Positions 1,641 through 55,504 of a DNA stretch of 64,000 nt are shown here, piece by piece (positions within the stretch are counted from its first letter, which is position 1; each line of letters opens with the position of its first letter). The stretch is from Bacteroidota bacterium (GTDB taxonomy: Bacteria; Bacteroidota; Bacteroidia; Palsa-948). The stretch is from the NCBI GenBank assembly GCA_016213405.1, contig JACRAM010000006.1, positions 29,731-93,730 of the forward strand, in the 5' to 3' direction. The translations under genes were made by a program, and so were the position numbers. The notes under the pieces were generated by a model, which saw only the letters and a list, made by a program, of their open reading frames with translations, ran no database searches and was not told the DNA's origin.

Positions 1641-1783
1641 ATCCCTAAAGGGAGAAAATGAAAGTCCCAAGCATCAAGCCCCAAGTACCAAGTCCAAAGA
1701 AGCAGCCGACATCGGCTTTCCCTTGGAATTTTGGACTTGGAATTTGGAATTTGGGACTTTATTTCCTTTAGGGATTTAGGGCA
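1641..1783. repeat. About 140-bp imperfect palindrome (MITE-like) with terminal inverted repeats ATCCCTAAAGG / CCTTTAGGGAT; interior made of CCAAGT/ACTTGG-type short repeats; central GCCGACATCGGC hairpin
   Basis: Read directly: atccctaaagggagaaaatgaaagtcccaag ... cttgggactttatttcctttagggat. Inner arms ccaagtaccaagtccaaag vs ctttcccttggaattttggacttgg. Lies between the mdh stop and the next gene. Confidence 0.6.
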
Positions 1784-2310: not shown

Positions 2311-3534
2311 TTACAAAACCCCCTCATCATACGCTTTCTCACCGTGTTCTGATTCATCCAGCCCTTTATCCTCGCCTGTTTCGTTCACCCGCACTTTGGC
2401 AACCCTATTTATCAAAAAGAGCATTGCGTACGTAAACACAAACGCATAGAGGCAGGCGCCCAGCACGGCAATCACCTGATGCATGAAGAAAGTTGAACCA
2501 CCGTGAAGCAAACCGTCAGCGCCAGCGGCATTTACAAACTTTGATGCGAACACTCCGAGAAGAATGGTGCCGAGGCATCCGCCAATTCCGTGAACGCCCC
2601 ACACATCGAGCGCGTCATCCCATCCCATTTTATTTTTAAGATGCACTGCCAGGTAGCAGATACTTCCTGATGCAATGCCGATGGCTACAGCCGCGTTGAG
2701 CGAAACAAATCCTGCCGCGGGAGTGATGGTGGCAAGTCCCGCCACTGCGCCTGTGAGCAGTCCGACAAACTTTGGCTTCTTCACTAATGACCATTCAATG
2801 ACGAGCCATGTGATGGCAGCGAATGAGGCGGCAACATCTGTATTTAGAAAAGCAAGACCCGTAACTGCATTTACATCCAGCGCGCTGCCTGCATTGAATC
2901 CATACCAGCCGAACCAAAGCAAACCGGTTCCGATGGCGATGAGCGGAATACTGTTCGGAACAGATTCTTTGTCTCTTCGTTTTCCAACATATATAACTGA
3001 AGCCAGTGCAGCAAATCCTGCGGTGGCGTGAACCACAATACCTCCTGCGAAATCAAGCACGCCCCATTGCGCGAGCAATCCGCCTCCCCACACCATGTGC
3101 GCGAACGGATAATAAACGAGCAATTGCCAGAGCACAAGAAATACCAAATACGATTTGAAGGTTACACGATTTACAAAAGCTCCTGTGATAAGCGCAGGCG
3201 TGATAATGGCGAACATCATCTGATACGCCATGAAAACAAACTCAGGAATATTTTTGTTTCCGGAAAATGCTGAATTCAGATTTACTCCGCGCATGAACGC
3301 TTTGTCAAAATTTCCGATTAAGCCGCCCATAGCATCACCGCTGAAGCAGAGCGAGTAGCCGCAGATATACCACATGATGGTGGTGATTCCCATCGAAACA
3401 AAACTCTGAATCATGATTCCGAGAATGTTTCGTTTGCCTGCCAATCCTCCGTAGAAGAAAGCAAGTCCGGGTGTCATGAGCATGACGAGACTTGTTGCAA
3501 GAAGCATAAAGCCGGTGGTTCCTGTGTCAAACAT
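2311..3534 (-). CDS. amt: Ammonium transporter (Amt/MEP family)
   Basis: 407-aa polytopic protein with conserved Amt stretches (MFDTGTTGFMLLATSLVMLMTPGLAFFYGG..., ...HGIGGCLGTILLGVFA...). Confidence 0.9.
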   Translation of the reverse strand: MFDTGTTGFMLLATSLVMLMTPGLAFFYGGLAGKRNILGIMIQSFVSMGITTIMWYICGYSLCFSGDAMGGLIGNFDKAFMRGVNLNSAFSGNKNIPEFVFMAYQMMFAIITPALITGAFVNRVTFKSYLVFLVLWQLLVYYPFAHMVWGGGLLAQWGVLDFAGGIVVHATAGFAALASVIYVGKRRDKESVPNSIPLIAIGTGLLWFGWYGFNAGSALDVNAVTGLAFLNTDVAASFAAITWLVIEWSLVKKPKFVGLLTGAVAGLATITPAAGFVSLNAAVAIGIASGSICYLAVHLKNKMGWDDALDVWGVHGIGGCLGTILLGVFASKFVNAAGADGLLHGGSTFFMHQVIAVLGACLYAFVFTYAMLFLINRVAKVRVNETGEDKGLDESEHGEKAYDEGVL

Positions 3535-4931: not shown

Positions 4932-5336
4932 TTATAAAAACCGATCTTTCACACCATCAGATGGAATCATGCACTCGCTTCTTTTTCCCCACCATTTATA
5001 GCGGTTGCGTGCAATCAGGTTGTAACAAAAATTGCGGATGAAAGCGGGCACAATAATGAAAACAAAAGCAAGAGAATAAATTCCTCCCAGATGATATAAT
5101 ATATGAAGCCCTGCGGATGATTGGAGATATACCTTGTTATTATAGATCAGCACTGCGCTTTCTTCTTTTACAGAAACAGCATGCTCTTTCAGTATTTTTT
5201 TTCCCACCTCCGACTGCAAAGTGGTGAAACGGAATTTCTTTTTCTTATCGTGACGAATGATAAAGTTAACCCAGCGGTTGCAGTAATTGCAGATACCGTC
5301 AAAGAGAAGAACAGGATAGAAATGTTCTGACGCCAT
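4932..5336 (-). CDS. Thiol-disulfide oxidoreductase DCC-family (DUF393) protein
   Basis: N-terminal FDGICNYCNRWVNF motif (DxxCxxC) is characteristic of DUF393/DCC proteins; 134 aa. Confidence 0.7.
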   Translation of the reverse strand: MASEHFYPVLLFDGICNYCNRWVNFIIRHDKKKKFRFTTLQSEVGKKILKEHAVSVKEESAVLIYNNKVYLQSSAGLHILYHLGGIYSLAFVFIIVPAFIRNFCYNLIARNRYKWWGKRSECMIPSDGVKDRFL

Positions 5337-5388
5337 TTTTAATTGTAAAAGTTATAACTCCAGTGGCTATAAAAGTACGGTAAGTTAA

Positions 5389-6195
5389 ATGATTCGTAAA
5401 TTCGCTTCTGATTTGTATTATGTAAAAATGTTTTTCTTCATTTCTAAAATATTATCCTTTCTTATTACTCCGGTCATCTGGGTTTTTGTGCTGCTTTTGT
5501 TTTCACTTCTTTCAAAAAATCCTAAAAGGAAAAAACGAAGTTTAATCTGGGCGCTTTGTTTGTTTTACTTTTTCTCCAACTCATTTATTCTCGAAGAAGT
5601 GAACCGGGTATGGGAAGTTCCCGCCACGCATTACAAAGATTTGAAAACCTATGATGCGGGAATTGTGCTTGGAGGAATGCTGGAATATGATATAGATTTT
5701 GACCGGTTGCAGTTTTTCAGAGGAGCTGACAGATTGTTTCAGGCAGTGGAATTATATAAAACAGGCGTCATCAAAAAAATATTTTTTGTTGGCGGAAGCG
5801 GAAGCATTGAGTTTGCCCATATTAAAGAAGGAATGTTTGTGCGCAGGTATTTGCTTACGATAGGAATTCCTGACAAAGACATCTGGATTGAAAATGAATC
5901 GCGCAACACGCATGAGAATGCCATTAACGCAAAAGGGTTTTTAGAAGAGCACCAATATCAGAGCGGAAAATTTTTGCTTATCACTTCTGCCAGCCATATG
6001 CGCAGGGCATTCGGCTGTTTTAATAAAGTTAGAATTAATGTTTCTCCCTATAGCGTTGACCGCAATGCAAGTCCTGTAAGGCGCTACTCATTTGATCATC
6101 TGTTTATTCCTGATGTTGAAACGCTTCTCAAATGGGATGCTCTCATCCATGAATGGATTGGAATGATTGTTTACAAGATGAAAGGTTACGCATAG
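5389..6195 (+). CDS. DUF218 (ElyC/SanA/YdcF-like) membrane-anchored protein
   Basis: N-terminal TM helix, then GIVLGG ... VGGSGS ... ITSASHMRRA, typical of the DUF218 fold. The true start may be the internal Met at about 5431. Confidence 0.6.
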   Translation: MIRKFASDLYYVKMFFFISKILSFLITPVIWVFVLLLFSLLSKNPKRKKRSLIWALCLFYFFSNSFILEEVNRVWEVPATHYKDLKTYDAGIVLGGMLEYDIDFDRLQFFRGADRLFQAVELYKTGVIKKIFFVGGSGSIEFAHIKEGMFVRRYLLTIGIPDKDIWIENESRNTHENAINAKGFLEEHQYQSGKFLLITSASHMRRAFGCFNKVRINVSPYSVDRNASPVRRYSFDHLFIPDVETLLKWDALIHEWIGMIVYKMKGYA

Positions 6196-6225
6196 AACAT
6201 GTAATAGGGGAGAAGGCAGATGGAA

Positions 6226-6252
6226 ATGACTAATGACTAATGACCAATGACT
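6226..6252. repeat. Heptanucleotide tandem repeat (ATGACTA x ~4) at the 3' end of the M1 peptidase gene
   Basis: atgactaatgactaatgaccaatgact read directly. The minus-strand stop codon TAG of the peptidase lies inside the array. Confidence 0.9.
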
Positions 6253-7967
6253 CTCTTTTTCATTTTTTTATTTTCTTCCACACCGTAAAGAAGCATGAAG
6301 TCGTTAAAGGAAATCTGTTTGTAGGTCTGCTTGGAGATGAATGCTTTCTGAATTGTATTGGAGGGCGTTAAACTTTTCTTAACGATTTCGTCCAGCATGA
6401 GTTCAACAGGCATTTTGAAATCTGCTCCAACATTTTTCCACCGATAATAGAAATTCTCGCCTTCCCAGTAATATTCAAACACGGGAGCTTCCCGCTTATA
6501 GAGATATTGATTAAAGAACCAGTTGTAATTTTCATTTGTTTTTTCGTTCACCACAGAAATAAAATCCTTAGAGCTGGTTGTTTTAAGTTTGTATCTGTCG
6601 AAAAAAGTTTTCAGTATGTCAAAAAATACTGCATCATCATTGATGGTTGAGCGGAGCGTGTGAAGCACCCAAGCGCCTTTCTGGTAGCAATCGCTGTTTC
6701 GGTAATCAAAATATCTTCTGTCAACAGGCCCGACAACTGGCCATTTGTTTTTTATGAAGAGGCGGTAGAAAACCAGGTAGTTTAAATAAGCATTTTTTCC
6801 CTGCGTGCTTTCTACATACAATGCTTCGCTGTATGTTGCAAAACCTTCCTGCAGCCACACATCGGAAAAATCAGATGCGGTGATGGCATTTCCCCACCAT
6901 TCATGAGCGCTTTCGTGAAGAATGATGTAGTCAAAATTTCCACCGAAACTGTTTTTATATCCGTGCCCGTAAGCAATAGCGGTTTGGTGCTCCATTCCTT
7001 CATAGGGAGATTCAATCAGTTTGTAACCATCCATATACCATGGGTATTCTCCAAAAGCTTTTTCGTAGAAAGCAATCTGCTCCTTTGCCTGAGGCAAATG
7101 TTTTTTTGCTTTTTCATAATTGTAAGTCAGCACATAATGATTGATGGGCAGAATTTTTCCGGAAGGCATTGTGTAAGTATCTGCGAGAAGGGAAAACTTT
7201 CCGATATAAATACTCACATCATATAAATTGATGGGATAAGAAATTCGCCATTGGTAAGTAACAAGATTTCCATTTTCTTCCTTTCTGATAAAATGCCCGT
7301 TGCTCACGGCTGTTAAATCTTTTGCAACGGTGATATTTACTGCAGCGCTGTCGGGCTCATCGTTGTTCACATCCTTGCAGGTCCACCAAAGAGACGCGCC
7401 TTCGGTTTCGCAGGCAACGCCTATCCAGGGATTTTTTTCTTTATCTTTTTTCCAGACGAATCCTCCCTTCCAGGGTGGTTTTTTTGCAACAAGCGGTGAA
7501 CCTTCGTAATCAATATTGAGTTTGAATATTTCTCCTGTCTTTTGTTTGAATGCGATGAAGATGGCACCGTGCTTGCGGATGTAAGATGTATTTATGAATT
7601 TTGTATCCTTTTCCTGAATGGAATTTAATGTGGCAAATCCGATAGTATTCACCTTCATGTTCTCATACAAATCAATTTGCAATGTGTCAAAATCAGCAAG
7701 AGCAATGGCACTAATAATTACTTTTCCTTTCAGGTATTTTTTCTTTTCGTCAACAGTTACATTCAATTCATAGTAGGTAGCATCAAAGCAATTGCGGTAT
7801 TTAGTGTTTTCCGTTCCTAAAAGTTTTGTGGTTTCTGAAAACTTTGGGTATTTACCTGCGTGCTTGGGAATGTGAACGCTTTTGTGAATGCCTAATAGAG
7901 AGCAGTCAGAGAAAAATAAGAGGCAAGAGGCAAGAGGTAAGAAGTAATATTTGCTCTTCACTGGCAT
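6237..7967 (-). CDS. M1-family zinc metallopeptidase (aminopeptidase N-like) with signal peptide
   Basis: HESAHEWWGN ... WLQEGFATY (HExxH + E zincin signature of M1) and a GAMEN-like region. The signal peptide carries a CCTCTTG x3 repeat; the stop codon is embedded in a GTCATTA x4 repeat. Confidence 0.8.
   Translation of the reverse strand: MPVKSKYYFLPLASCLLFFSDCSLLGIHKSVHIPKHAGKYPKFSETTKLLGTENTKYRNCFDATYYELNVTVDEKKKYLKGKVIISAIALADFDTLQIDLYENMKVNTIGFATLNSIQEKDTKFINTSYIRKHGAIFIAFKQKTGEIFKLNIDYEGSPLVAKKPPWKGGFVWKKDKEKNPWIGVACETEGASLWWTCKDVNNDEPDSAAVNITVAKDLTAVSNGHFIRKEENGNLVTYQWRISYPINLYDVSIYIGKFSLLADTYTMPSGKILPINHYVLTYNYEKAKKHLPQAKEQIAFYEKAFGEYPWYMDGYKLIESPYEGMEHQTAIAYGHGYKNSFGGNFDYIILHESAHEWWGNAITASDFSDVWLQEGFATYSEALYVESTQGKNAYLNYLVFYRLFIKNKWPVVGPVDRRYFDYRNSDCYQKGAWVLHTLRSTINDDAVFFDILKTFFDRYKLKTTSSKDFISVVNEKTNENYNWFFNQYLYKREAPVFEYYWEGENFYYRWKNVGADFKMPVELMLDEIVKKSLTPSNTIQKAFISKQTYKQISFNDFMLLYGVEENKKMKKRVIGH
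7918..7944. repeat. Heptanucleotide tandem repeat (AAGAGGC x ~3.5) inside the signal-peptide coding region of the M1 peptidase
   Basis: aagaggcaagaggcaagaggtaagaag; encodes ...FLPLASCLLF... on the minus strand. Confidence 0.85.
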
Positions 7968-14919: not shown

Positions 14920-16316
14920 TTCTTTGTCATTGAATAAAGAATTCTGCCTGAATTTTTCAGAGCAAAAGTCTCATTAATAGAAAAATAATTTCCAAATGCA
15001 GCTATAAAATTCCCGTTGGTGTAATCATTAAAAATATTTTCCCTTCCTGAAATCATTTGCTGAACCATTGCATCGTCTTTTGGAATAAATTCTATTATTA
15101 ATTCTTCTGTAAGCTCTGAAAAATATCTTGCTATTATGGAAAACGGAATATTATTTCCTATGCGAATGTGATGAGTCAATGCCAAGGCAAGAACTGTATC
15201 CGCTTTTCCCCGCTGTGCAATGTTTCTGCGTTCAGCATTTGCCCAGCCGATGGAAGGGGAGGGGTTTGATAAATCAATAACAAGTGGAAGAATATTATTT
15301 GTGGCTGAGTTTTTTAATGCAGTATAAAAGTTTTCTATGCAATAGTGGTCAGCATCCATTGATAAAATATAATTGCAGTGTTTGGAGGCAATCAACGAAA
15401 ATTTGCCTATGTTGCATCCTAAATCCCATAAGGTTTCAGGTTTTAATTTTTCAAGCCAGCTCGTAACGATTTGTTCTTTTAAATGCAGCACTTCTTCCGA
15501 ATAAGTATTTTCTACTTCGTATTTTATCCAGTTACTATTTACTTTTTTTATTTTAAGAGTACGGATACTGTCTTCCATGTGTTGAATCATTAGAAGTAGT
15601 TTGGATTTAGGGAGAACAGTTTTTTTATTTTTAATTGTATTTATTCTGGAATATTTTTTTTGAATTTTTGAGTGGAAGATGATGTGAGCAGCAATTCCGC
15701 TGTTCAGATAGGATGTTGAAGGCAAGAGGGACGAAGCAAGTTCAAGAGGAATACCGTCAATATAGTTAAGAAGTAGTTTTGAGAGTTCTGCGGATTTATA
15801 GCTCATCAAAGCAAGTGGCGCCAGAAAATGCTGGCAGAATTGCCTGTATGCATTCCACGGTTTTCCTTCATCATATTTTTCAAAAGAGAGCGTGTCAATG
15901 AAAATCGGTTTTCCTCCTACGAATTGTACGTTATAGGCAGAAGCATCTTTTAATGTCATCCCATGTTTCAGCGCTTCTTTCTGAACTTTAAGAGTGAGTA
16001 ATGCAGCGTCTTGCAGCTGGCTAAAGCACCATTCGTAGGGATAAGAGATAAATGGAATTTGTTCCGGCTTAATTACTTTATATGCTGTATATTCCTTTGT
16101 CAAGAAATTTTCTATTTCAGAATGTTTAACAACAAACTTCTTTGATGAAAGAGATTGATACAATCCTGAATTAATAAGAAGAGAAAAATTTTCAAAATAG
16201 GAAGGAGCTATTGCCCTGTAAATCTCGTTTTCAAATGTAAATGTAAAGCCGGATGGGTCCCGGAAAGAACCCGGTTCAATCTCAACAGAAGATATATCTT
16301 GGCTGAGCACAGACAT
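14916..16316 (-). CDS. Two-domain protein: N-terminal protein-kinase-like fold + C-terminal class I SAM-dependent methyltransferase (WbdD-like candidate polysaccharide chain terminator)
   Basis: N-terminal half has LKDASAYNVQF...GKPIFIDTLSFE resembling the kinase catalytic loop (D..xxN) and DFG-like ID motif. The C-terminal half has DLGCNIGKFS (methyltransferase motif I). It sits in an ABC-transporter-dependent locus. Confidence 0.5.
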   Translation of the reverse strand: MSVLSQDISSVEIEPGSFRDPSGFTFTFENEIYRAIAPSYFENFSLLINSGLYQSLSSKKFVVKHSEIENFLTKEYTAYKVIKPEQIPFISYPYEWCFSQLQDAALLTLKVQKEALKHGMTLKDASAYNVQFVGGKPIFIDTLSFEKYDEGKPWNAYRQFCQHFLAPLALMSYKSAELSKLLLNYIDGIPLELASSLLPSTSYLNSGIAAHIIFHSKIQKKYSRINTIKNKKTVLPKSKLLLMIQHMEDSIRTLKIKKVNSNWIKYEVENTYSEEVLHLKEQIVTSWLEKLKPETLWDLGCNIGKFSLIASKHCNYILSMDADHYCIENFYTALKNSATNNILPLVIDLSNPSPSIGWANAERRNIAQRGKADTVLALALTHHIRIGNNIPFSIIARYFSELTEELIIEFIPKDDAMVQQMISGRENIFNDYTNGNFIAAFGNYFSINETFALKNSGRILYSMTKK

Positions 16317-29434: not shown

Positions 29435-30539
29435 TATAAAGCTTTTCCAGATCATTTATCATTCGTTCCAGATTAAATTTCTGAACAAATTGTTTTCCAT
29501 TGAGAGCGATTGTATTTGCCAAATCTTTATCAGATTGCAGACGAATCATTTCCTTATAAATTTCGTTTGAGTTTTTAAAATTAACCACAAGTGCATTTTT
29601 TTCATGTTCGATGAATTCGCAAGCAATTCCTGATAATGTAAAAACAGAAGGCACTCCTGCCGCCAATGCTTCAATGTAGGTTTGACCGAATGCTTCGCAT
29701 AATGAATCAATGGGAGTATGTATATAAATGTCGAACAGCTTATATAAAGCAGCCACATCTTCTTCAAATGGAATAATTCTATAATTTGACTCAGGAATAG
29801 TTTCCAACTGCTGTACTATTTGATTATGGTAGGGTCCATAAGCATTGGCTAATATCAATGTGGCATCAGGATATTTTTTTAAAAAATCTTTAAACGCTGG
29901 AATAATATATTGTATGCCTTTCCATTCAATGTAGCGGGCAATAACACCAATTCGTGGATGGTTGTCCGGAATATTCCATTTTAGCTTTATCTTGTTACTG
30001 TTTTTTATATCAATTGAATCAAAATGCCTGAGGTCAAACCCATGATAAATAGTTCGGATTTTTTCAGGGTTAACATTTTCAAATTCAACTAATGTTTTGT
30101 AAGTTGCCTGGCTGATAGAAATAATATGTGTAGCCATTTTATTGCACCATAAATCATATTTCACTCCTTTTGGAAAATACCGACGATGGTAGGTACTGTC
30201 GTGGCGGGTGTAAATTCTTTTTTTTATCCCACATAATCTCCCGGCAGTTAATGCAATTAAGTTCGCATCAAAAACATGCGTGTGAATAATGTCAGGTTTT
30301 AATTTGAGAAAGAACCAGAAAACTTTAATAAAGGCAGTAACAATATTTTGTTTTCCATTATAATAAATCCGTATAACATTTATTTTATTCTTAGTGAGGA
30401 AATCTTCAAATGAAGAATTCTCAATATTCAATAATAATACTGTCAATTCATATTTTTTTTTTAATTCTGATAAAGTCCACTCTAATCCAAGTGATTTATT
30501 GACATGAGAAATGATATAAATAATATGTTGTTTCGGCAT
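29427..30539 (-). CDS. Glycosyltransferase family 1 (GT4-type)
   Basis: 370 aa GT-B protein with ...EAFGQTYIEALAAGVPSV... (EX7E-like). Confidence 0.65.
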   Translation of the reverse strand: MPKQHIIYIISHVNKSLGLEWTLSELKKKYELTVLLLNIENSSFEDFLTKNKINVIRIYYNGKQNIVTAFIKVFWFFLKLKPDIIHTHVFDANLIALTAGRLCGIKKRIYTRHDSTYHRRYFPKGVKYDLWCNKMATHIISISQATYKTLVEFENVNPEKIRTIYHGFDLRHFDSIDIKNSNKIKLKWNIPDNHPRIGVIARYIEWKGIQYIIPAFKDFLKKYPDATLILANAYGPYHNQIVQQLETIPESNYRIIPFEEDVAALYKLFDIYIHTPIDSLCEAFGQTYIEALAAGVPSVFTLSGIACEFIEHEKNALVVNFKNSNEIYKEMIRLQSDKDLANTIALNGKQFVQKFNLERMINDLEKLYNE

Positions 30540-44478: not shown

Positions 44479-45665
44479 TTCCATTGAGCGAAGACTTTCT
44501 ACATCACCGTTTGAAGAGCAGAGAAGAACAAGATTTGCTCAGAAAACTTTCTCCCGAAAATAATCTCGTAGATTTTTCTTCCAATGATTATTTAGGATTT
44601 GCTCGCTCCGAAGAATTACAAAAATTTATTACCGCTGAACTCCAAACTCCAAACTCCAAACTCCGAACTGGTTCCACGGGCTCTCGTCTTCTTACCGGCA
44701 ATTCACAGTACGCAGAAGACTTAGAGAAGTTTATTGCTGAATATCATAAAGCGGAAGCAGGCTTGATTTTTAATTCCGGCTATAACGCTAACCTTGGTTT
44801 GATTTCTTCGGTGGCACAAAAAGGAGATGTTATTTTCTATGATGAACTTTCTCATGCTTCCATTTACGATGGAGTGCGTTTGTCAAAGGCAGAATCATTT
44901 CCGTTCAGACACAATGATATATCACATCTTGAAGAAAGATTGAAATTTTACAGAAGCAATCATGACAGCAATTCAAATTGCTTTGTGATTGTTGAAAGTG
45001 TTTATTCTATGGATGGAGATTTTTCTCCTTTGAAAGAAATTACTTCTCTTTGTGAAGAGTATAATGCAAACTTAATTGTTGATGAAGCGCACGCCACCGG
45101 AATCTTTGGACCGAAAGGTGAGGGAAGAGTTGTTGAATTGAATCTCCATGAAAAATTTTTTGCACGTGTTCATACGTTCGGCAAAGCGCTTGGATGCCAC
45201 GGAGCGATTGTTTTAGGAAGTGAATACCTGCGTAATTACCTTATCAATTATGCCCGCTCATTTATCTATACAACTGCACTACCGGTTCATAGTTTAGTGG
45301 TAATAAAATCGTCTTATAATTATCTTTTAAATAGTTATGATAGAATGCTTAAAACCAATGATTTGATAAAATCATTCAAATCGTTAGTAAAGGATAAAAG
45401 TGTTACAGGATTTTTAGAAAGTTCAAGCCCGATTCAGTCATTGGTTGTTGAAGGAAACGAAGAAGTAAAAAGGATTTCTTTGCTTGTTCGGAAAGACGGA
45501 TTTGATGTTCGACCGATTCTCAGTCCAACAGTTCCCAAAGGAAAAGAAAGAATCAGAATTTGTTTGCATACTTTCAATACGCTGGAAGAAATAAAAGGAC
45601 TGCTTTCTTCCTTGAAAAAAAATAGTAATCTTGCCGTTGTAAAGCAAGAGCTAATTTCTGAATGA
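44475..45665 (+). CDS. bioF: 8-amino-7-oxononanoate synthase
   Basis: Class-II aminotransferase fold with ...DEAHATG... and the PLP lysine region (...TFGKALG...). It contains an in-frame AACTCCA x4 heptamer repeat. Confidence 0.85.
   Translation: MIPLSEDFLHHRLKSREEQDLLRKLSPENNLVDFSSNDYLGFARSEELQKFITAELQTPNSKLRTGSTGSRLLTGNSQYAEDLEKFIAEYHKAEAGLIFNSGYNANLGLISSVAQKGDVIFYDELSHASIYDGVRLSKAESFPFRHNDISHLEERLKFYRSNHDSNSNCFVIVESVYSMDGDFSPLKEITSLCEEYNANLIVDEAHATGIFGPKGEGRVVELNLHEKFFARVHTFGKALGCHGAIVLGSEYLRNYLINYARSFIYTTALPVHSLVVIKSSYNYLLNSYDRMLKTNDLIKSFKSLVKDKSVTGFLESSSPIQSLVVEGNEEVKRISLLVRKDGFDVRPILSPTVPKGKERIRICLHTFNTLEEIKGLLSSLKKNSNLAVVKQELISE
44638..44671. repeat. Heptanucleotide tandem repeat (AACTCCA x ~4.7) in frame within bioF
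   Basis: aactccaaactccaaactccaaactccgaactgg; encodes ELQTPNSKLRTG. Confidence 0.9.
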
Positions 45666-46309: not shown

Positions 46310-47590
46310 ATGTCACTCTCATCGCGCGATAAAAACATCATCTGGCATCCATACTCGCAGCATCAGCTCAATCCTGATTCTATTGGAATTGTAAAAGCTA
46401 AAGGTGCTTATGTGTATGATCAGAAAGGGAAAAAATACATTGACGCGCTTTCATCCTGGTGGACTTCCATTCACGGACACACTCATCCTTACATCGCAAA
46501 AAAAGTTTTTACCCAATTAAAAAAACTAGAGCATGTCATCTTTGCCGGATTCACTCACGAACCCGCTGTTGAATTGGCTGAACGACTTTTGAAAAAACTT
46601 CCTAAGAATCAAAAAAGAATTTTCTTTTCTGATAATGGTTCTACTGCCGTTGAAGTTGCATTGAAGATGAGTTTTCAATACTGGTATAACAAGGGAACAC
46701 CAAAAACAAAAGTGATTGCGTTCGAGAACGCCTATCACGGAGATACATTCGGAGCGATGTCTGTGAGTGAACGTGGAGCATTCACAAAGCCGTTTGATTT
46801 TGGATTGTTTGATGTGGCTTTTATTGATGCGCCTATTAAAGGAAAAGAAACAGAATCTATTCAACAACTCACATCAGCCATCAACCATCAACCATCAACC
46901 ATTGCAGCATTTATCTTTGAGCCAATTGTGCAGGGAGTTGCCGGAATGGTAATTCACGAAGCCAAAGCACTCAGCGAAATGATTAGGATTTGTAAGGCGA
47001 ATAATATTTTCACAATTGCGGATGAAGTGTTTACGGGATTTGGCAGAACAGGAAAGTTTTTTGCATCAGATTATCTTTCTGAAAAACCTGATATGGTTTG
47101 TCTTTCAAAAGGATTAACGGGCGGAACGATGGCGATGGGTGTTACTTCCTGTACTGCAGAAATCTTCAATGCCTTTCTTTCCGAAGACAGGATGAAAACT
47201 TTTTTTCACGGACATTCATTCACGGCAAACCCTGTTGCTTGTTCAGCTTCTCTCGCAAGTTTGGATTTGATTGAAAAGAAATCTACTAAGGAAAGTATAA
47301 AGAGAATTACAAAGCGACATGAGAAATTTTCAAAAGCACTTATTGGAAATAAGTCAATAAAGGAAATAAGGAAAATTGGTGTTGTTCTTGCGATAGAACT
47401 TAAAACATCTGGCGAAACGTCTTACTTTAATTCCATTCGTGATAAGGCAACTAAGTTTTTTCTTGGCAAAGGAATTTTACTTCGCCCGCTTGGAAATGTG
47501 ATTTATCTTGTTCCGCCTTATTGCATATCCGATAAAGATTTGGATTACATTTACAATTCAATAGAAGAATTCATAGGAATATTAAAATGA
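46310..47590 (+). CDS. bioA: Adenosylmethionine-8-amino-7-oxononanoate aminotransferase
   Basis: Class-III aminotransferase with the [18 protein letters not shown] region. The N-terminal WHPYSQ... is typical of BioA. It carries an in-frame CATCAAC x4 repeat. Confidence 0.9.
46872..46905. repeat. Heptanucleotide tandem repeat (CATCAAC x ~4.8) in frame within bioA
   Basis: catcagccatcaaccatcaaccatcaaccattgc; encodes [12 protein letters not shown]. Confidence 0.9.
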
Positions 47591-53520: not shown

Positions 53521-53832
53521 TTGAAAACTAACTTAAAGATAAAGTTCTTCATTTTTTTTGTTTCGGCAACATTATTTTCAGTTCAATGCTATTCGCAGCG
53601 CGCCAGCGGGGAGAGCCCGATCATATCAGGAGCAAAAAACATTGTTAAAGCTGCAGCGCCTGTAGTGAAAGACGGTTACAGAAGAATTGAAAAAAGATCG
53701 GGAGCCGTGCGCGCTATTAATGGCGCTGTTTCACAGGCAAAGCCGATGATAGACAAAGCTATTCCTATGGTGCAAAAAGGTTTTATCATCGGCAAGAAAA
53801 TATATAAGATTCTTAAAAAGATTTTAAGGTGA
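53521..53832 (+). CDS. Small secreted protein with cationic amphipathic C-terminus
   Basis: Signal peptide then ...KGFIIGKKIYKILKKILR; 103 aa. Its stop overlaps the downstream GTG start. Confidence 0.35.
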   Translation: MKTNLKIKFFIFFVSATLFSVQCYSQRASGESPIISGAKNIVKAAAPVVKDGYRRIEKRSGAVRAINGAVSQAKPMIDKAIPMVQKGFIIGKKIYKILKKILR

Positions 53833-55037
53833 CCAACCGCCAGTTGTTTTTCAACCATCTGGCGCAGACCTCCGCTGCGCCTCCCGCTCTTGAAATTAAA
53901 AGCGCGAAGGGAATTTATCTCTATGGCGCTGACGGAAAAAAATACATGGATTTGATTGCTGGAATTTCTGTTAGTAATGTGGGGCATGGAAATCCGAAAG
54001 TGCTGAGCGCGATAAAAAAGCAGTTAGACAAGCACAGTTACCTGATGGTTTACGGAGAATATACTGTTGCCCCGCAGGTGGAATACGCAAATCTTCTGTT
54101 CAACTATCTGCCAAAGAAATTGAACAATATCTATTTCGTTAATTCAGGAAGCGAAGCGGTGGAAGGCGCGCTTAAACTTGCCAAGCGGTTTTCGGGCAGA
54201 ACAGAAATCATCGCTTTTAAAAATGCGTATCACGGAAGCACACACGGAGCGCTGAGCGTGATGGGAAATGAAACGATGAAGCAGGCATTCCGCCCATTGC
54301 TGCCTGATGTGCGCTTTATCGAATTCAATAATGAAAAACATCTTGAACAAATTACAAACAAGACTGCATGTGTAATTGTGGAGCCGATTCAGGGAGAAGC
54401 AGGGGTAATAAGTCCCAAGTCCCAAGTCCCAAGTCCTAAGTCTCAAGGCAAAAACTTTCTTCAACTGCTAAGAGAAAGATGCGATGAAACCGAAACGCTT
54501 TTAATCTTTGATGAGATACAAACCGGAATGGGCAGAACAGGAACTTTATTTGCGTTTGAGAAATACAAAGTGGTGCCTGATATTCTTTGTCTGGCGAAAG
54601 CGTTTGGCGGAGGAATGCCGCTTGGCGCGTTCATCTCTTCGAAAGAAATCATGTCAACGCTTTCTCATCATCCGGCACTGGGGCACATCACTACTTTTGG
54701 CGGTCATCCGCTGAGTTGTGTGGCAGGAATGGAGACGTTGAAAATTACGAATGACGAATTACGAATGGCGAATTCAAAATCAAAGCTCTTCAAAAAACTT
54801 TTAGTTCATCCGCGCATTAAAGAAGTGAGGGGAGAGGGCTTGCTTCTCGCGGTTCAGTTTGGGAGCGAAGAGGAAAACAAAAAAATAATTTCACGGTGTA
54901 TGGAGAACGGTGTGATAACCGATTGGTTTCTTTTCTGCCCTTCTGCCATGCGCATTGCGCCTCCGCTTATTATTACAGAAAAAGAAATAAGGAAAGCGTG
55001 TGAGGTGATTTTGAAAAGTATTGAAGAAGTAATTTAG
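53829..55037 (+). CDS. Class-III (acetylornithine/ArgD-like) PLP aminotransferase, GTG start
   Basis: SGSEAVEGALKLAKR..., DEIQTGMGRTG, LAKAFGGGMPLGA (PLP-Lys region). It carries two in-frame heptamer-repeat insertions. Confidence 0.8.
   Translation: MTNRQLFFNHLAQTSAAPPALEIKSAKGIYLYGADGKKYMDLIAGISVSNVGHGNPKVLSAIKKQLDKHSYLMVYGEYTVAPQVEYANLLFNYLPKKLNNIYFVNSGSEAVEGALKLAKRFSGRTEIIAFKNAYHGSTHGALSVMGNETMKQAFRPLLPDVRFIEFNNEKHLEQITNKTACVIVEPIQGEAGVISPKSQVPSPKSQGKNFLQLLRERCDETETLLIFDEIQTGMGRTGTLFAFEKYKVVPDILCLAKAFGGGMPLGAFISSKEIMSTLSHHPALGHITTFGGHPLSCVAGMETLKITNDELRMANSKSKLFKKLLVHPRIKEVRGEGLLLAVQFGSEEENKKIISRCMENGVITDWFLFCPSAMRIAPPLIITEKEIRKACEVILKSIEEVI
54411..54448. repeat. Heptanucleotide tandem repeat (AGTCCCA x ~5.4) in frame within the aminotransferase
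   Basis: agtcccaagtcccaagtcccaagtcctaagtctcaagg; encodes SPKSQVPSPKSQ right after the conserved IQGEAGVI. Confidence 0.9.
54747..54774. repeat. Heptanucleotide tandem repeat (ACGAATK x 4) in frame within the aminotransferase
   Basis: acgaatgacgaattacgaatggcgaatt; encodes TNDELRMAN. Confidence 0.9.
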
Positions 55038-55423
55038 TAAACTCCTGTAGTAAGCATCACTAGCGTGCAGGCTTCGAGGGATTCAATTCCTGCATCACGA
55101 ATTATTTTTGCAAACTCAGGATTTTCAGCGCCCGGATTAAAGATAACGCGCCTGGGTTTTAAGGAAAGAATATAATCGTAATAAACGGGCTGGTTCTTTG
55201 CTCCCACATACAGCGAAACAGAATCAACCCCTTCAATCTTCGGAAAACCTGTTTGAATTATCACACTATCAAACCCGAGGGCACCATTTGCAATGCCTGA
55301 AATTCTTCCTTGCTTTAAACCAATGGCAATTACATTATGGTTGTGCTCCCGCAGTTTTCTCACCGCACGGTTTGAATACCGCTCACGATTTTCTGATGCG
55401 CCTATTACTACGGTTGTCTTCAT
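55034..55423 (-). CDS. CoA-binding domain protein (YccU-like)
   Basis: MKTTVVIGASENRERYSNRAVRKL... Rossmann-like CoA-binding fold; 129 aa. Confidence 0.8.
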   Translation of the reverse strand: MKTTVVIGASENRERYSNRAVRKLREHNHNVIAIGLKQGRISGIANGALGFDSVIIQTGFPKIEGVDSVSLYVGAKNQPVYYDYILSLKPRRVIFNPGAENPEFAKIIRDAGIESLEACTLVMLTTGVY

Positions 55424-55504
55424 CTGCGAATACGAATATGTACGAATCTACTAATTTTTCTTTGTTTTTATTCGTTTATTCGTATTGATTCGTATTCGTA
55501 GATG
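55421..55504. repeat. Inverted repeat built from CGAATAC-type heptamers around a T-rich centre (intergenic hairpin)
   Basis: catctgcgaatacgaatatgtacgaatctac ... cgtttattcgtattgattcgtattcgtagatg are near reverse complements. It spans from the CoA-binding gene start to the MFS stop. Confidence 0.8.

Follow-up and report, generated by a model that had tools for sequence, protein, structure and literature searches.

A class-III aminotransferase gene with two heptanucleotide arrays

The window analysed here (64,000 nucleotides of contig JACRAM010000006.1, assembly GCA_016213405.1 of a Bacteroidota bacterium, positions 29,731 to 93,730) contains a gene for a class-III, ArgD/YgjG-like, pyridoxal phosphate (PLP) aminotransferase that carries two tandem arrays of 7-nt units (heptamers), both translated in the frame of the enzyme and here called site 1 and site 2 (Table 1). 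The protein, which is identical to MBI4929276.1 ('MAG: Bacteroidetes bacterium', 136-kb contig; MAG, metagenome-assembled genome), is placed in the class-III family by a full-length profile match (PF00202 of Pfam, residues 18-396, E 4.5e-97, 325.7 bits versus a gathering cut-off of 30.5) together with its conserved residues and fold: the nearest structures by phmmer are ArgD and YgjG (E about 2e-67 to 2ord, 2e54 and 1vef), and the AlphaFold2 (AF2) model (predicted local distance difference test, pLDDT, 85; predicted template modelling score, pTM, 0.87) aligns by Foldseek at TM 0.86-0.90 with the solved ArgD and YgjG structures 2ord, 1vef and 4uox. All columns invariant across 60 orthologs are retained, including K257, presumably the PLP lysine, and D228, E229 and Q231, presumably part of the DEIQ motif. 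With these columns kept and no stop in the open reading frame (ORF), the gene is almost certainly not a pseudogene, the outcome that an earlier note on this DNA, made from the sequence alone, had set against its own proposal of tolerated insertions. Because the curated NCBIfam cut-offs for ArgD are not reached (341 bits against 410 for the best match, TIGR00707, the argD subfamily; 325 against 457 for NF002874, ArgD), the enzyme is probably best called 'ArgD-like' only, with no substrate attached; among the neighbouring ORFs checked, no arg gene is adjacent.

Arrays were called with Tandem Repeats Finder (TRF). Site 1, which starts at nt 582 of the 1209-nt gene, was called at 54410-54447 as 5.4 copies of period 7 (90% matches, score 62; the unit AAGTCCC is a rotation of AGTCCCA). 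Site 2, which starts at nt 915, was called at 54743-54773/4 as 4.4 copies of period 7 (83% matches) and also as 2.3 copies of period 14 (94% matches, score 57; AATTACG AATGACG is a rotation of ACGAATK). Residues 194-207 thus read ISPKSQVPSPKSQG (the site-1 stretch is also written SPKSQVPSPKSQ), and residues 305-316 read KITNDELRMANS. The TRF calls and the translation of the ORF bear out the earlier note as to the reality, the frame and the peptides of both arrays. It had further taken them for two independent insertions, and had proposed comparison with orthologs and mapping onto a structure, where surface loops might be expected; unit and length do differ among orthologs at both sites, although at site 1 the three near-identical strains showed no variation.

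Site 1: an insertion in the predicted loop after QGEAG

The proteins compared were the window aminotransferase and its 59 closest relatives (n=60, 65-87% identity), and DNA was read at 15 loci from 14 distinct orthologs; the loci of close relatives were retrieved individually, the orthologs among the matches listed from scans of GTDB genomes and JGI metagenomes being almost all distant (49-62% identity). Between IQGEAGVI and NFL the window protein has 10 residues more than the ArgD of T. maritima (10 gap columns against 2ord). Site 1 is empty in 33 of the 60 aminotransferases, which read ...ILP(E/K)NNFL, and the loci L001, L169 and L173 are likewise empty (...ILP-(K/E)NNFL); in the remaining 27 proteins the site is filled by inserts of +2 to +31 aa, unrelated in sequence. 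Site 1 is thus a true insertion, of about 10 aa, and the place is an insertion hot spot. Read as DNA, most of the inserts are again heptamer arrays, each with its own unit: AGTCCCA in the window, AGTCACA in L161, CAGTWGG in L162, L167 and L168, TTAAAAA/TGAAAAA in L166 and AAGGCAA in L171. L161, which among the orthologs read as DNA is the closest one with a different site 1 (86-87% aa identity), has an array of equal place and length with AGTCACA x3 for the AGTCCCA x3 of the window, evidently a concerted change within the array.

The arrays of site 1 continue the native flank in register. In the window the array begins within the codons of Ser195 and Pro196, and its first unit includes that of Pro196, which is nearly invariant; the first unit of L162, CTGCCAG, consists of the conserved Leu-Pro codons; and in L166 the unit GAAAAAT is similar to the native GAAAATAAT found where the site is empty. 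In the AF2 model, where both sites were placed by secondary structure and pLDDT, site 1 falls in predicted coil that follows strand 179-184 and precedes helix 210-220, and the mean pLDDT dips around it (85 in the block 191-200, 74 in the block 201-210).

The lengths of the site-1 inserts (27, 30, 33 and 48 nt) were considered as multiples of 7 with a compensating indel and set aside as uninformative, since any multiple of 3 is no more than 2-3 nt away from some multiple of 7. One ortholog has an insert of another kind: in L172 (gene 1077-2351, protein P0043) a GC-rich palindrome of 87 nt lies in frame exactly at site 1, encoding CNIQPPLIPPKGGNLHVQSPSLWEGRGGLG, and the 129-nt segment that holds it folds at -52 kcal/mol. 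A third insertion site, LRTKLRSPSSSG before the PKxL motif (alignment columns 114-125), is found in a single ortholog, P0047.

Site 2: an old array in the long predicted helix

At site 2 the window protein is as long as its orthologs and not longer than T. maritima ArgD, and the array is situated midway along a helix that is predicted with confidence (294-324, pLDDT above 90). In every one of the nine close orthologs that were read as DNA and are free of a larger insert there, the slot is occupied by a heptamer array built from a different unit (GGCAGAA in L001 and L167, GGCRGCA in L164, AAGTYAA in L166, L169, L170 and L171, GGACAKA in L162 and AATACGA in L161), at up to about 25% aa divergence, and the encoded peptides are unrelated (TNDELRM, KSQKLKV, RQKAEG). 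Site 2, which adds no length, is not an insertion; and since all nine orthologs hold an array there, it is old. Of the two insertions that the earlier note had claimed, then, the one at site 1 stands, being gapped against the ArgD structures, empty in more than half of the orthologs and in a predicted coil; the one at site 2 does not, since the slot has the same 42 nt in orthologs and lies in a predicted helix, and with it falls the claim of two independent insertion events.

The comparison with L001 shows what has changed. The 42-nt slot reads ATTACGA ATGACGA ATTACGA ATGGCGA ATTCAAA ATCAAAG in the window and ATTACAA GGCAGAA GGCAGAA GGCAGAA GGCAGAA GGGTCAG in L001: the first heptamer, which continues the I-T codons in register, is common to both (ATTACGA versus ATTACAA), and the following units of the window copy that heptamer. 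At the level of the sequence the two slots testify directly to the turnover of an old array, in place and at constant length: where L001 has GGCAGAA x4, the window has copies of the first heptamer, and the overwriting step would have been net-zero.

Site 2, too, accepts hairpins in some orthologs. In L173 (protein P0013) a hairpin element with the termini CCCTAAAGGGAG...CTCCCTTTAGGG lies in frame there; the same hairpin was judged present in P0008, P0018 and P0026 from the peptide text PGPKG...SPLGVGG; and in P0075 site 2 holds about 50 extra aa, starting with SSHPDPKG and ending with SPLGVGG.

Excess of period-7 arrays in the window and in Bacteroidota

Chance was tested by 100 second-order Markov simulations of the 64-kb window. 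Period-7 arrays with a self-match score of at least 12 number five, against a simulated mean of 0.02, and the window has no array so high in score at periods 4-6, 8-13 or 15; at a threshold of 9, which takes in site 2, seven period-7 arrays were seen against 0.63 expected. The proposal of the earlier note that a repeat-generating process is at work here, beyond chance, is thereby strengthened, period 7 being the sole enriched period. Given eight arrays per 64 kb, the probability that two fall within one gene of 1.2 kb is about 0.01.

Neither is the excess private to the source genome. The distant Bacteroidota loci (2.26 Mb) have 74 period-7 arrays, none of the other periods from 5 to 11 having more than 16, and the close relatives have 15 period-7 arrays per 167 kb; over 2.4 Mb of Bacteroidota loci outside the window, period 7 dominates among the repeat periods. 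About a fifth of the period-7 arrays (21/95) are genic, and 23 of 90 have an inverted partner array within 160 nt, compared with 2 in controls. The units are diverse: the window has seven different ones, each at 1-2 loci and most at one locus only. Over all period-7 arrays of the loci analysed (173 retrieved loci, less four near-duplicates, plus the window), the most enriched trinucleotide in array units is ACT/AGT (24/75, the expectation being 17%; uncorrected p 0.001, with 32 tests made), an enrichment too weak to rest on, so that a core shared by all units was rejected.

Some units recur elsewhere. In L091 the unit AGTTACG is found at five loci (2633, 4901, 9818, 16592 and 16696) and a second unit, AGTTGAA, at three, a recurrence that suggests genome-specific unit families. 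An (A/G)TTACGA or TACGAA core occurs in distant high-GC Bacteroidota loci (L091; L101 at 4794 and 4851; L139 at 11058), often in inverted pairs, and matches the site-2 unit of the window (54743) and the hairpin at 55421-55504.

Independent assemblies and recombination between strains

An independent ENA assembly (L170) agrees with the window base for base over the core of the site-1 array (33 nt, 54410-54442), the site-1 peptide is identical in the JGI protein P0122, and arrays at both sites are also present in assemblies from NCBI, ENA, JGI and Logan. L170, in which the aminotransferase gene occupies 5186-6394, is about 99-100% identical to the window over 2.2 kb, as far as nt 700 or so of the gene, and 93-95% identical thereafter; its site-2 array is of the AAGTCAA type, and beyond the gene synteny breaks off, the aminotransferase and the CoA-binding gene of L170 being separated by about 6 kb with other genes. 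L166 and L171 are 98-100% identical per 100-nt block over 3 kb, save for one block of 96% at 0.8 kb upstream and a patch of about 130 nt, which consists of the site-1 array (different unit, +21 nt) and about 55 nt downstream; the 75-nt flank tested in the patch has 76% identity, so that it diverges as much as separate lineages do. Homologous recombination from strain to strain thus shuffles the array alleles, with a breakpoint inside the gene, at about nt 700, in the case of the window and L170.

In a neighbour-joining tree of the proteins, site-1 inserts are spread patchily and internal branches are short; because of these short branches and of recombination, a tally of independent gains at site 1 would be unreliable. 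Four shortened proteins (P0055, P0056, P0057 and P0075) were considered as frameshift alleles and rejected, their N termini being cut by contig ends.

Other arrays and hairpins of the window

Table 1. Coordinates of the aminotransferase gene, the heptamer arrays and the hairpins in the window.
Feature	Position	Strand	Description
Class-III (ArgD/YgjG-like) PLP aminotransferase gene	53829..55037	+	Intact ORF, 402 aa, 1209 nt, GTG start, no internal stop
Site 1 array	54410..54451	+	AAGTCCC x3, AAGTCCT, AAGTCTC, AAGGCAA; encodes S195-K208 (SPKSQVPSPKSQGK); net gain about 10 aa
Site 2 array	54743..54775	+	AATTACG AATGACG AATTACG AATGGCG AATTC; encodes I306-N315 (ITNDELRMAN); no net length change
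(CATCAAC)x4.4	46872..46902	+	In frame in BioA, a paralogous class-III aminotransferase; also in the L162 ortholog; +3 aa versus E. coli BioA
(AACTCCA)x4.6	44635..44669	+	In frame in BioF; encodes ELQTPNSKLRT; decayed copy in the L162 ortholog; within 2 aa of solved homologues
(GCCTCTT)n on coding strand	7917..7947	-	Encodes hydrophobic core YFLPLASCLLF of N-terminal signal peptide, M1 peptidase (ORF 6237..7967)
(AGTCATT)n	6225..6252	-	Spans stop codon of the same M1 peptidase gene; no secondary structure
Intergenic hairpin after mdh	1641..1775	+	Termini CCCTAAAGGGAG...CCTTTAGGG; arms are imperfect heptamer arrays
Intergenic hairpin between MFS (major facilitator superfamily) and CoA-binding genes	55421..55504	+	Inverted repeat I1, 35-nt arms; TACGAA(T)/ATTCGT(A) motifs

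The arrays in bioA and bioF behave like site 2, being common to the syntenic L162 locus and changing the length of the protein by at most 3 aa. The encoded peptides suit their context throughout: they are hydrophilic in the variable, poorly conserved segments of the ArgD-like protein, BioA and BioF, and hydrophobic in the signal peptide. None of the genic arrays has secondary structure (fold z 0.1-0.6; 0.60 and 0.11 for the two aminotransferase arrays).

Folded as RNA, the two intergenic hairpins reach -61 kcal/mol (z -5.8) for 1641-1775 and -29 kcal/mol (z -7.3) for 55421-55504. The earlier note had likened the site-1 unit to those of the palindrome at 1.6-1.8 kb, and indeed the left arm of that hairpin is made up of AAGTCCC/AAGYMCC (1662-1697) and the right arm of TTGGAAT/GGGACTT (1723-1754). 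In the hairpin at 55421-55504 the motifs are spaced at 6-10 nt (TRF periods 6-10), and their TACGAA core is that of the site-2 unit. Hairpins with the termini CCCTAAAGGGAG...CTCCCTTTAGGG are scattered, mostly between genes: at 1641-1775 in the window, at 3413-3507 and about 1230-1304 in L168, at about 3980-4063 in L082 and at 5906-5965 in L173. A further inverted repeat, I7 (15916-16039, holding TACGAAT), was rejected as an element of this kind, since it lies inside an ORF of 466 aa and looks like chance. An Rfam scan of the window gave no family anywhere, and a consensus terminator scan did not call the heptamer hairpins.

Directly downstream of the hairpin 1641-1775, at 1793-2218, is a stand-alone retropepsin-like aspartyl protease (PF13650, E 1.8e-14). 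Upstream of the aminotransferase, and overlapping its start by 4 nt, a conserved ORF of 103 aa (53521-53832) has a hydrophobic N terminus and no Pfam match; L161, L162, L170 and L172 also have a small ORF lacking a Pfam match in this position, alike in place and size.

Comparison with known repeat systems

The arrays belong to the heptanucleotide class of simple sequence repeats (SSRs), among the long SSRs (LSSRs), and resemble the short tandemly repeated repetitive (STRR) sequences of cyanobacteria; they are of an essentially known kind. According to Mrazek et al. 2007, as reported in PMC4679880 and PMC4692102, heptanucleotides are the most abundant class of LSSR in most prokaryotic genomes, polymerase slippage is proposed for them, they may reflect the footprint of the polymerase, and LSSRs are mainly intergenic, those in genes preferring units that are multiples of three. 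The arrays of the window resemble LSSRs in their head-to-tail 7-nt units, their few to several copies at the match levels given above, the over-representation of period 7, the diversity of units and the variation of unit and length between close relatives; they differ in that five of them are in frame in housekeeping genes and that one persists across a clade at constant length with a changed unit.

STRR heptamers of heterocystous cyanobacteria, with the units CCCCAGT, TTGGTCA and CAACAGT, were reportedly described by Mazel et al. in 1990. The likeness lies in tandem heptamers that often occur as inverted pairs and form intergenic hairpins, and may extend to the units: AGTCCCA of the window is one base from AGTCCCC, a rotation of STRR1, AGTCAAA of its relatives is close to AGTCAAC, a rotation of STRR3, and AATGACY at 6225 of the window is close to the complement of STRR2. 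The host phylum is another one, and the window lacks a few high-copy unit families of the STRR type, each unit being at 1-2 loci in 64 kb.

Direct repeats of TAACTGA occur in Beggiatoaceae, Cyanobacteria and five Bacteroidetes; most of them immediately precede a start codon, and a regulatory role has been proposed for them. Other heptamer repeats occur in intergenic regions of Gramella and Aequorivita, and one set lies inside a purC gene (MacGregor 2015, PMC4679880). These are likewise heptamer direct repeats with a patchy phylogenetic spread that includes Bacteroidetes, but they have a single specific unit, with stop codons in the forward orientation, and no unit found here is TAACTGA.

Rickettsia palindromic elements (RPE) are mobile palindromes of 100-150 bp with a family consensus, inserted in frame in genes (Ogata et al. 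reportedly described them in 2000, and Rickettsia genome papers mention them). Like RPE, the DNA considered here is repeated and lies in frame in conserved housekeeping genes at places compatible with the fold and function of the protein, which is true also of the hairpin inserts of L172 at site 1 and L173 at site 2, and these two inserts have hairpin structure as well (dG -52 and -46.5 for the segments tested). The arrays of the window, in contrast, are of 33-42 nt, non-palindromic and locus-specific, lack both hairpin structure and the family consensus of dispersed copies expected of RPE, miniature inverted-repeat transposable elements (MITE) or repetitive extragenic palindromic (REP) sequences, and at site 2 add no length; by these two features they are not RPE-like.

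Heptanucleotide repeats also serve as phase-variable switches, as in the hmw1A promoter of Haemophilus influenzae (PMC8262952). The 7-nt unit and slippage as the mutational mechanism are points in common. Such contingency loci, however, have many copies, lie in promoters or at the 5' ends of genes for surface proteins and vary clonally in copy number, whereas the arrays of the window have 4-5 copies, lie in the middle of genes for metabolic enzymes and have no copy-number variants among those seen; since cluster members also include no out-of-frame variant, the arrays are on present evidence not contingency loci.

Origin of the arrays

The reading favoured here, to which we give a probability of roughly 0.6, is that the arrays are local products of slipped or out-of-register copying in 7-nt steps, filtered by selection, and that their alleles are moved by recombination. 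Such copying would take place during replication or repair, 7 nt being the preferred slippage register in this lineage and, more weakly, across Bacteroidota. New units would be templated from neighbouring native sequence, as the register of the first units at both sites suggests, and would then spread along the array. To survive in a gene, an event would have to keep the frame, be free of stops in all three phases and affect an unconstrained segment of the protein, where the peptides may be functionally neutral. The aminotransferase would offer two such segments, the loop after QGEAG, where about 10 aa are gained, and the variable mid-helix stretch of 294-324, where an old array may have been overwritten repeatedly at constant length; homologous recombination between related strains would then relocate the array alleles.

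In favour of this reading are the enrichment of period 7 alone, the diversity of units and their restriction to single loci, their continuation of the native flank in register, the concerted change seen in L161, the want of secondary structure in the genic arrays, the fit of the peptides to their context, the intact state of the enzyme and the published account of heptanucleotide LSSRs given above.

Several observations weigh against this reading. A single slip of +/-7 nt shifts the frame, so constant-length turnover needs paired or net-zero events, which have to be assumed; no length variant of the window's own arrays was found, the three independent data sets being in agreement. The slippage account gives no reason for the 7-nt register. 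The site-2 units of the window and L170 differ at 4 of 7 positions, while flanks in the recombined tract differ by 5-7%, so that the unit apparently changes faster than point mutation and homogenisation would allow. Each array has a partner hairpin of the same core in the window (AAGTCCC at 1.66 kb, TACGAA at 55.4 kb), and in other Bacteroidota genomes a single unit is reused at several loci, for example AGTTACG at five in L091; unit reuse and partner hairpins are not predicted by purely local slippage.

These observations leave some room for arrays that were copied in, either as pieces of a mobile hairpin (MITE-, REP- or RPE-like) or by ectopic gene conversion from hairpins into permissive sites in genes, which we consider unlikely. 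The left arm of the hairpin at 1641-1775 includes AAGTCCC, and both arms of the one at 55421-55504 are filled with TACGAA; the family with the termini CCCTAAAGGGAG...CTCCCTTTAGGG is dispersed in the clade (window, L168 and L082) and lies in frame at site 2 in L173/P0013, as the unrelated palindrome of L172 does at site 1; and to these may be added the excess of inverted partner arrays and the reuse of units within single genomes. The two aminotransferase arrays themselves, however, are not palindromic (z about 0), hairpin termini are absent from the gene (CCCTAAAGGGAG was looked for), and no target-site duplication is visible. Likeness to the hairpin arms is confined to the unit, amounting at site 1 to one 16-nt stretch (1680-1695) that equals two tandem units with at most one mismatch. 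At a given site different orthologs have different units, which prolong in register the native codons beside them, and because the units are so diverse and locus-specific a single mobile sequence is disfavoured.

If DNA were copied or overwritten in a 7-nt register by a sequence-directed process common to Bacteroidota, cyanobacteria (STRR) and Beggiatoaceae (TAACTGA), this would explain the constant-length turnover inside genes, the change of units at a faster pace than that of their flanks, their reuse across loci and the similar units in distant phyla. We think such a process very unlikely; candidates for the writer would be a repair or priming enzyme preferring an A-R-T or ACT-AGT core, or directed conversion from hairpin elements. 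Suggestive but weak support comes from the ACT/AGT enrichment and from units that recur at several loci and in several lineages; the STRR units and the Beggiatoa TAACTGA also contain this trinucleotide.

A function selected for, whether as a frameshift on/off switch or through a peptide of 7-aa period (for example an amphipathic helix at site 2), has a slim chance of being the explanation. A heptamer array has been retained at site 2 in nine loci over the divergence given above, a 7-nt unit gives a 7-aa period, which is the helical heptad, site 2 is helical in the model, and heptanucleotide contingency repeats do occur in Haemophilus (PMC8262952). On the other side, no frameshifted or copy-number variant was found among close relatives (the shortened cluster members end at contig ends), the arrays are in mid-gene, not at the 5' end, have only 4-5 units and belong to housekeeping enzymes (ArgD-like, BioA, BioF), the peptides are unrelated between orthologs at each site, and site 1 is dispensable in 33/60. 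That the arrays are an assembly artefact or a sign of a decaying pseudogene is scarcely credible: the source is a metagenome-assembled genome, short repeats are prone to mis-assembly, and L166 and L171, which differ essentially in one 130-nt patch, could be a strain chimera, but the site-1 array is found in three independent data sets, arrays at both sites are found in assemblies from four sources, and the ORF is intact, with its invariant residues kept and a confident model.

Significance for Bacteroidota and class-III aminotransferases

If the arrays arise by copying in 7-nt steps, a genome-wide mutational bias reshapes conserved enzymes in these bacteria: heptamer repeats enter housekeeping genes and persist there across lineages, a persistence all the more notable for the fact that any single-unit slip would destroy the reading frame. 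For annotation, the arrays are a warning that low-complexity segments of 7-aa period in MAG proteins can be real. Within the class-III fold they mark the segments in which any sequence is tolerated, namely the loop that follows QGEAG and the variable stretch of the long predicted helix, and the acceptance of hairpin elements at both sites makes these natural permissive sites, of possible use in loop engineering of class-III transaminases. The site-2 series is an unusually clean natural record of array turnover, one 42-nt slot having one first heptamer and different fillings, and it could serve to test why bacteria favour 7 nt.

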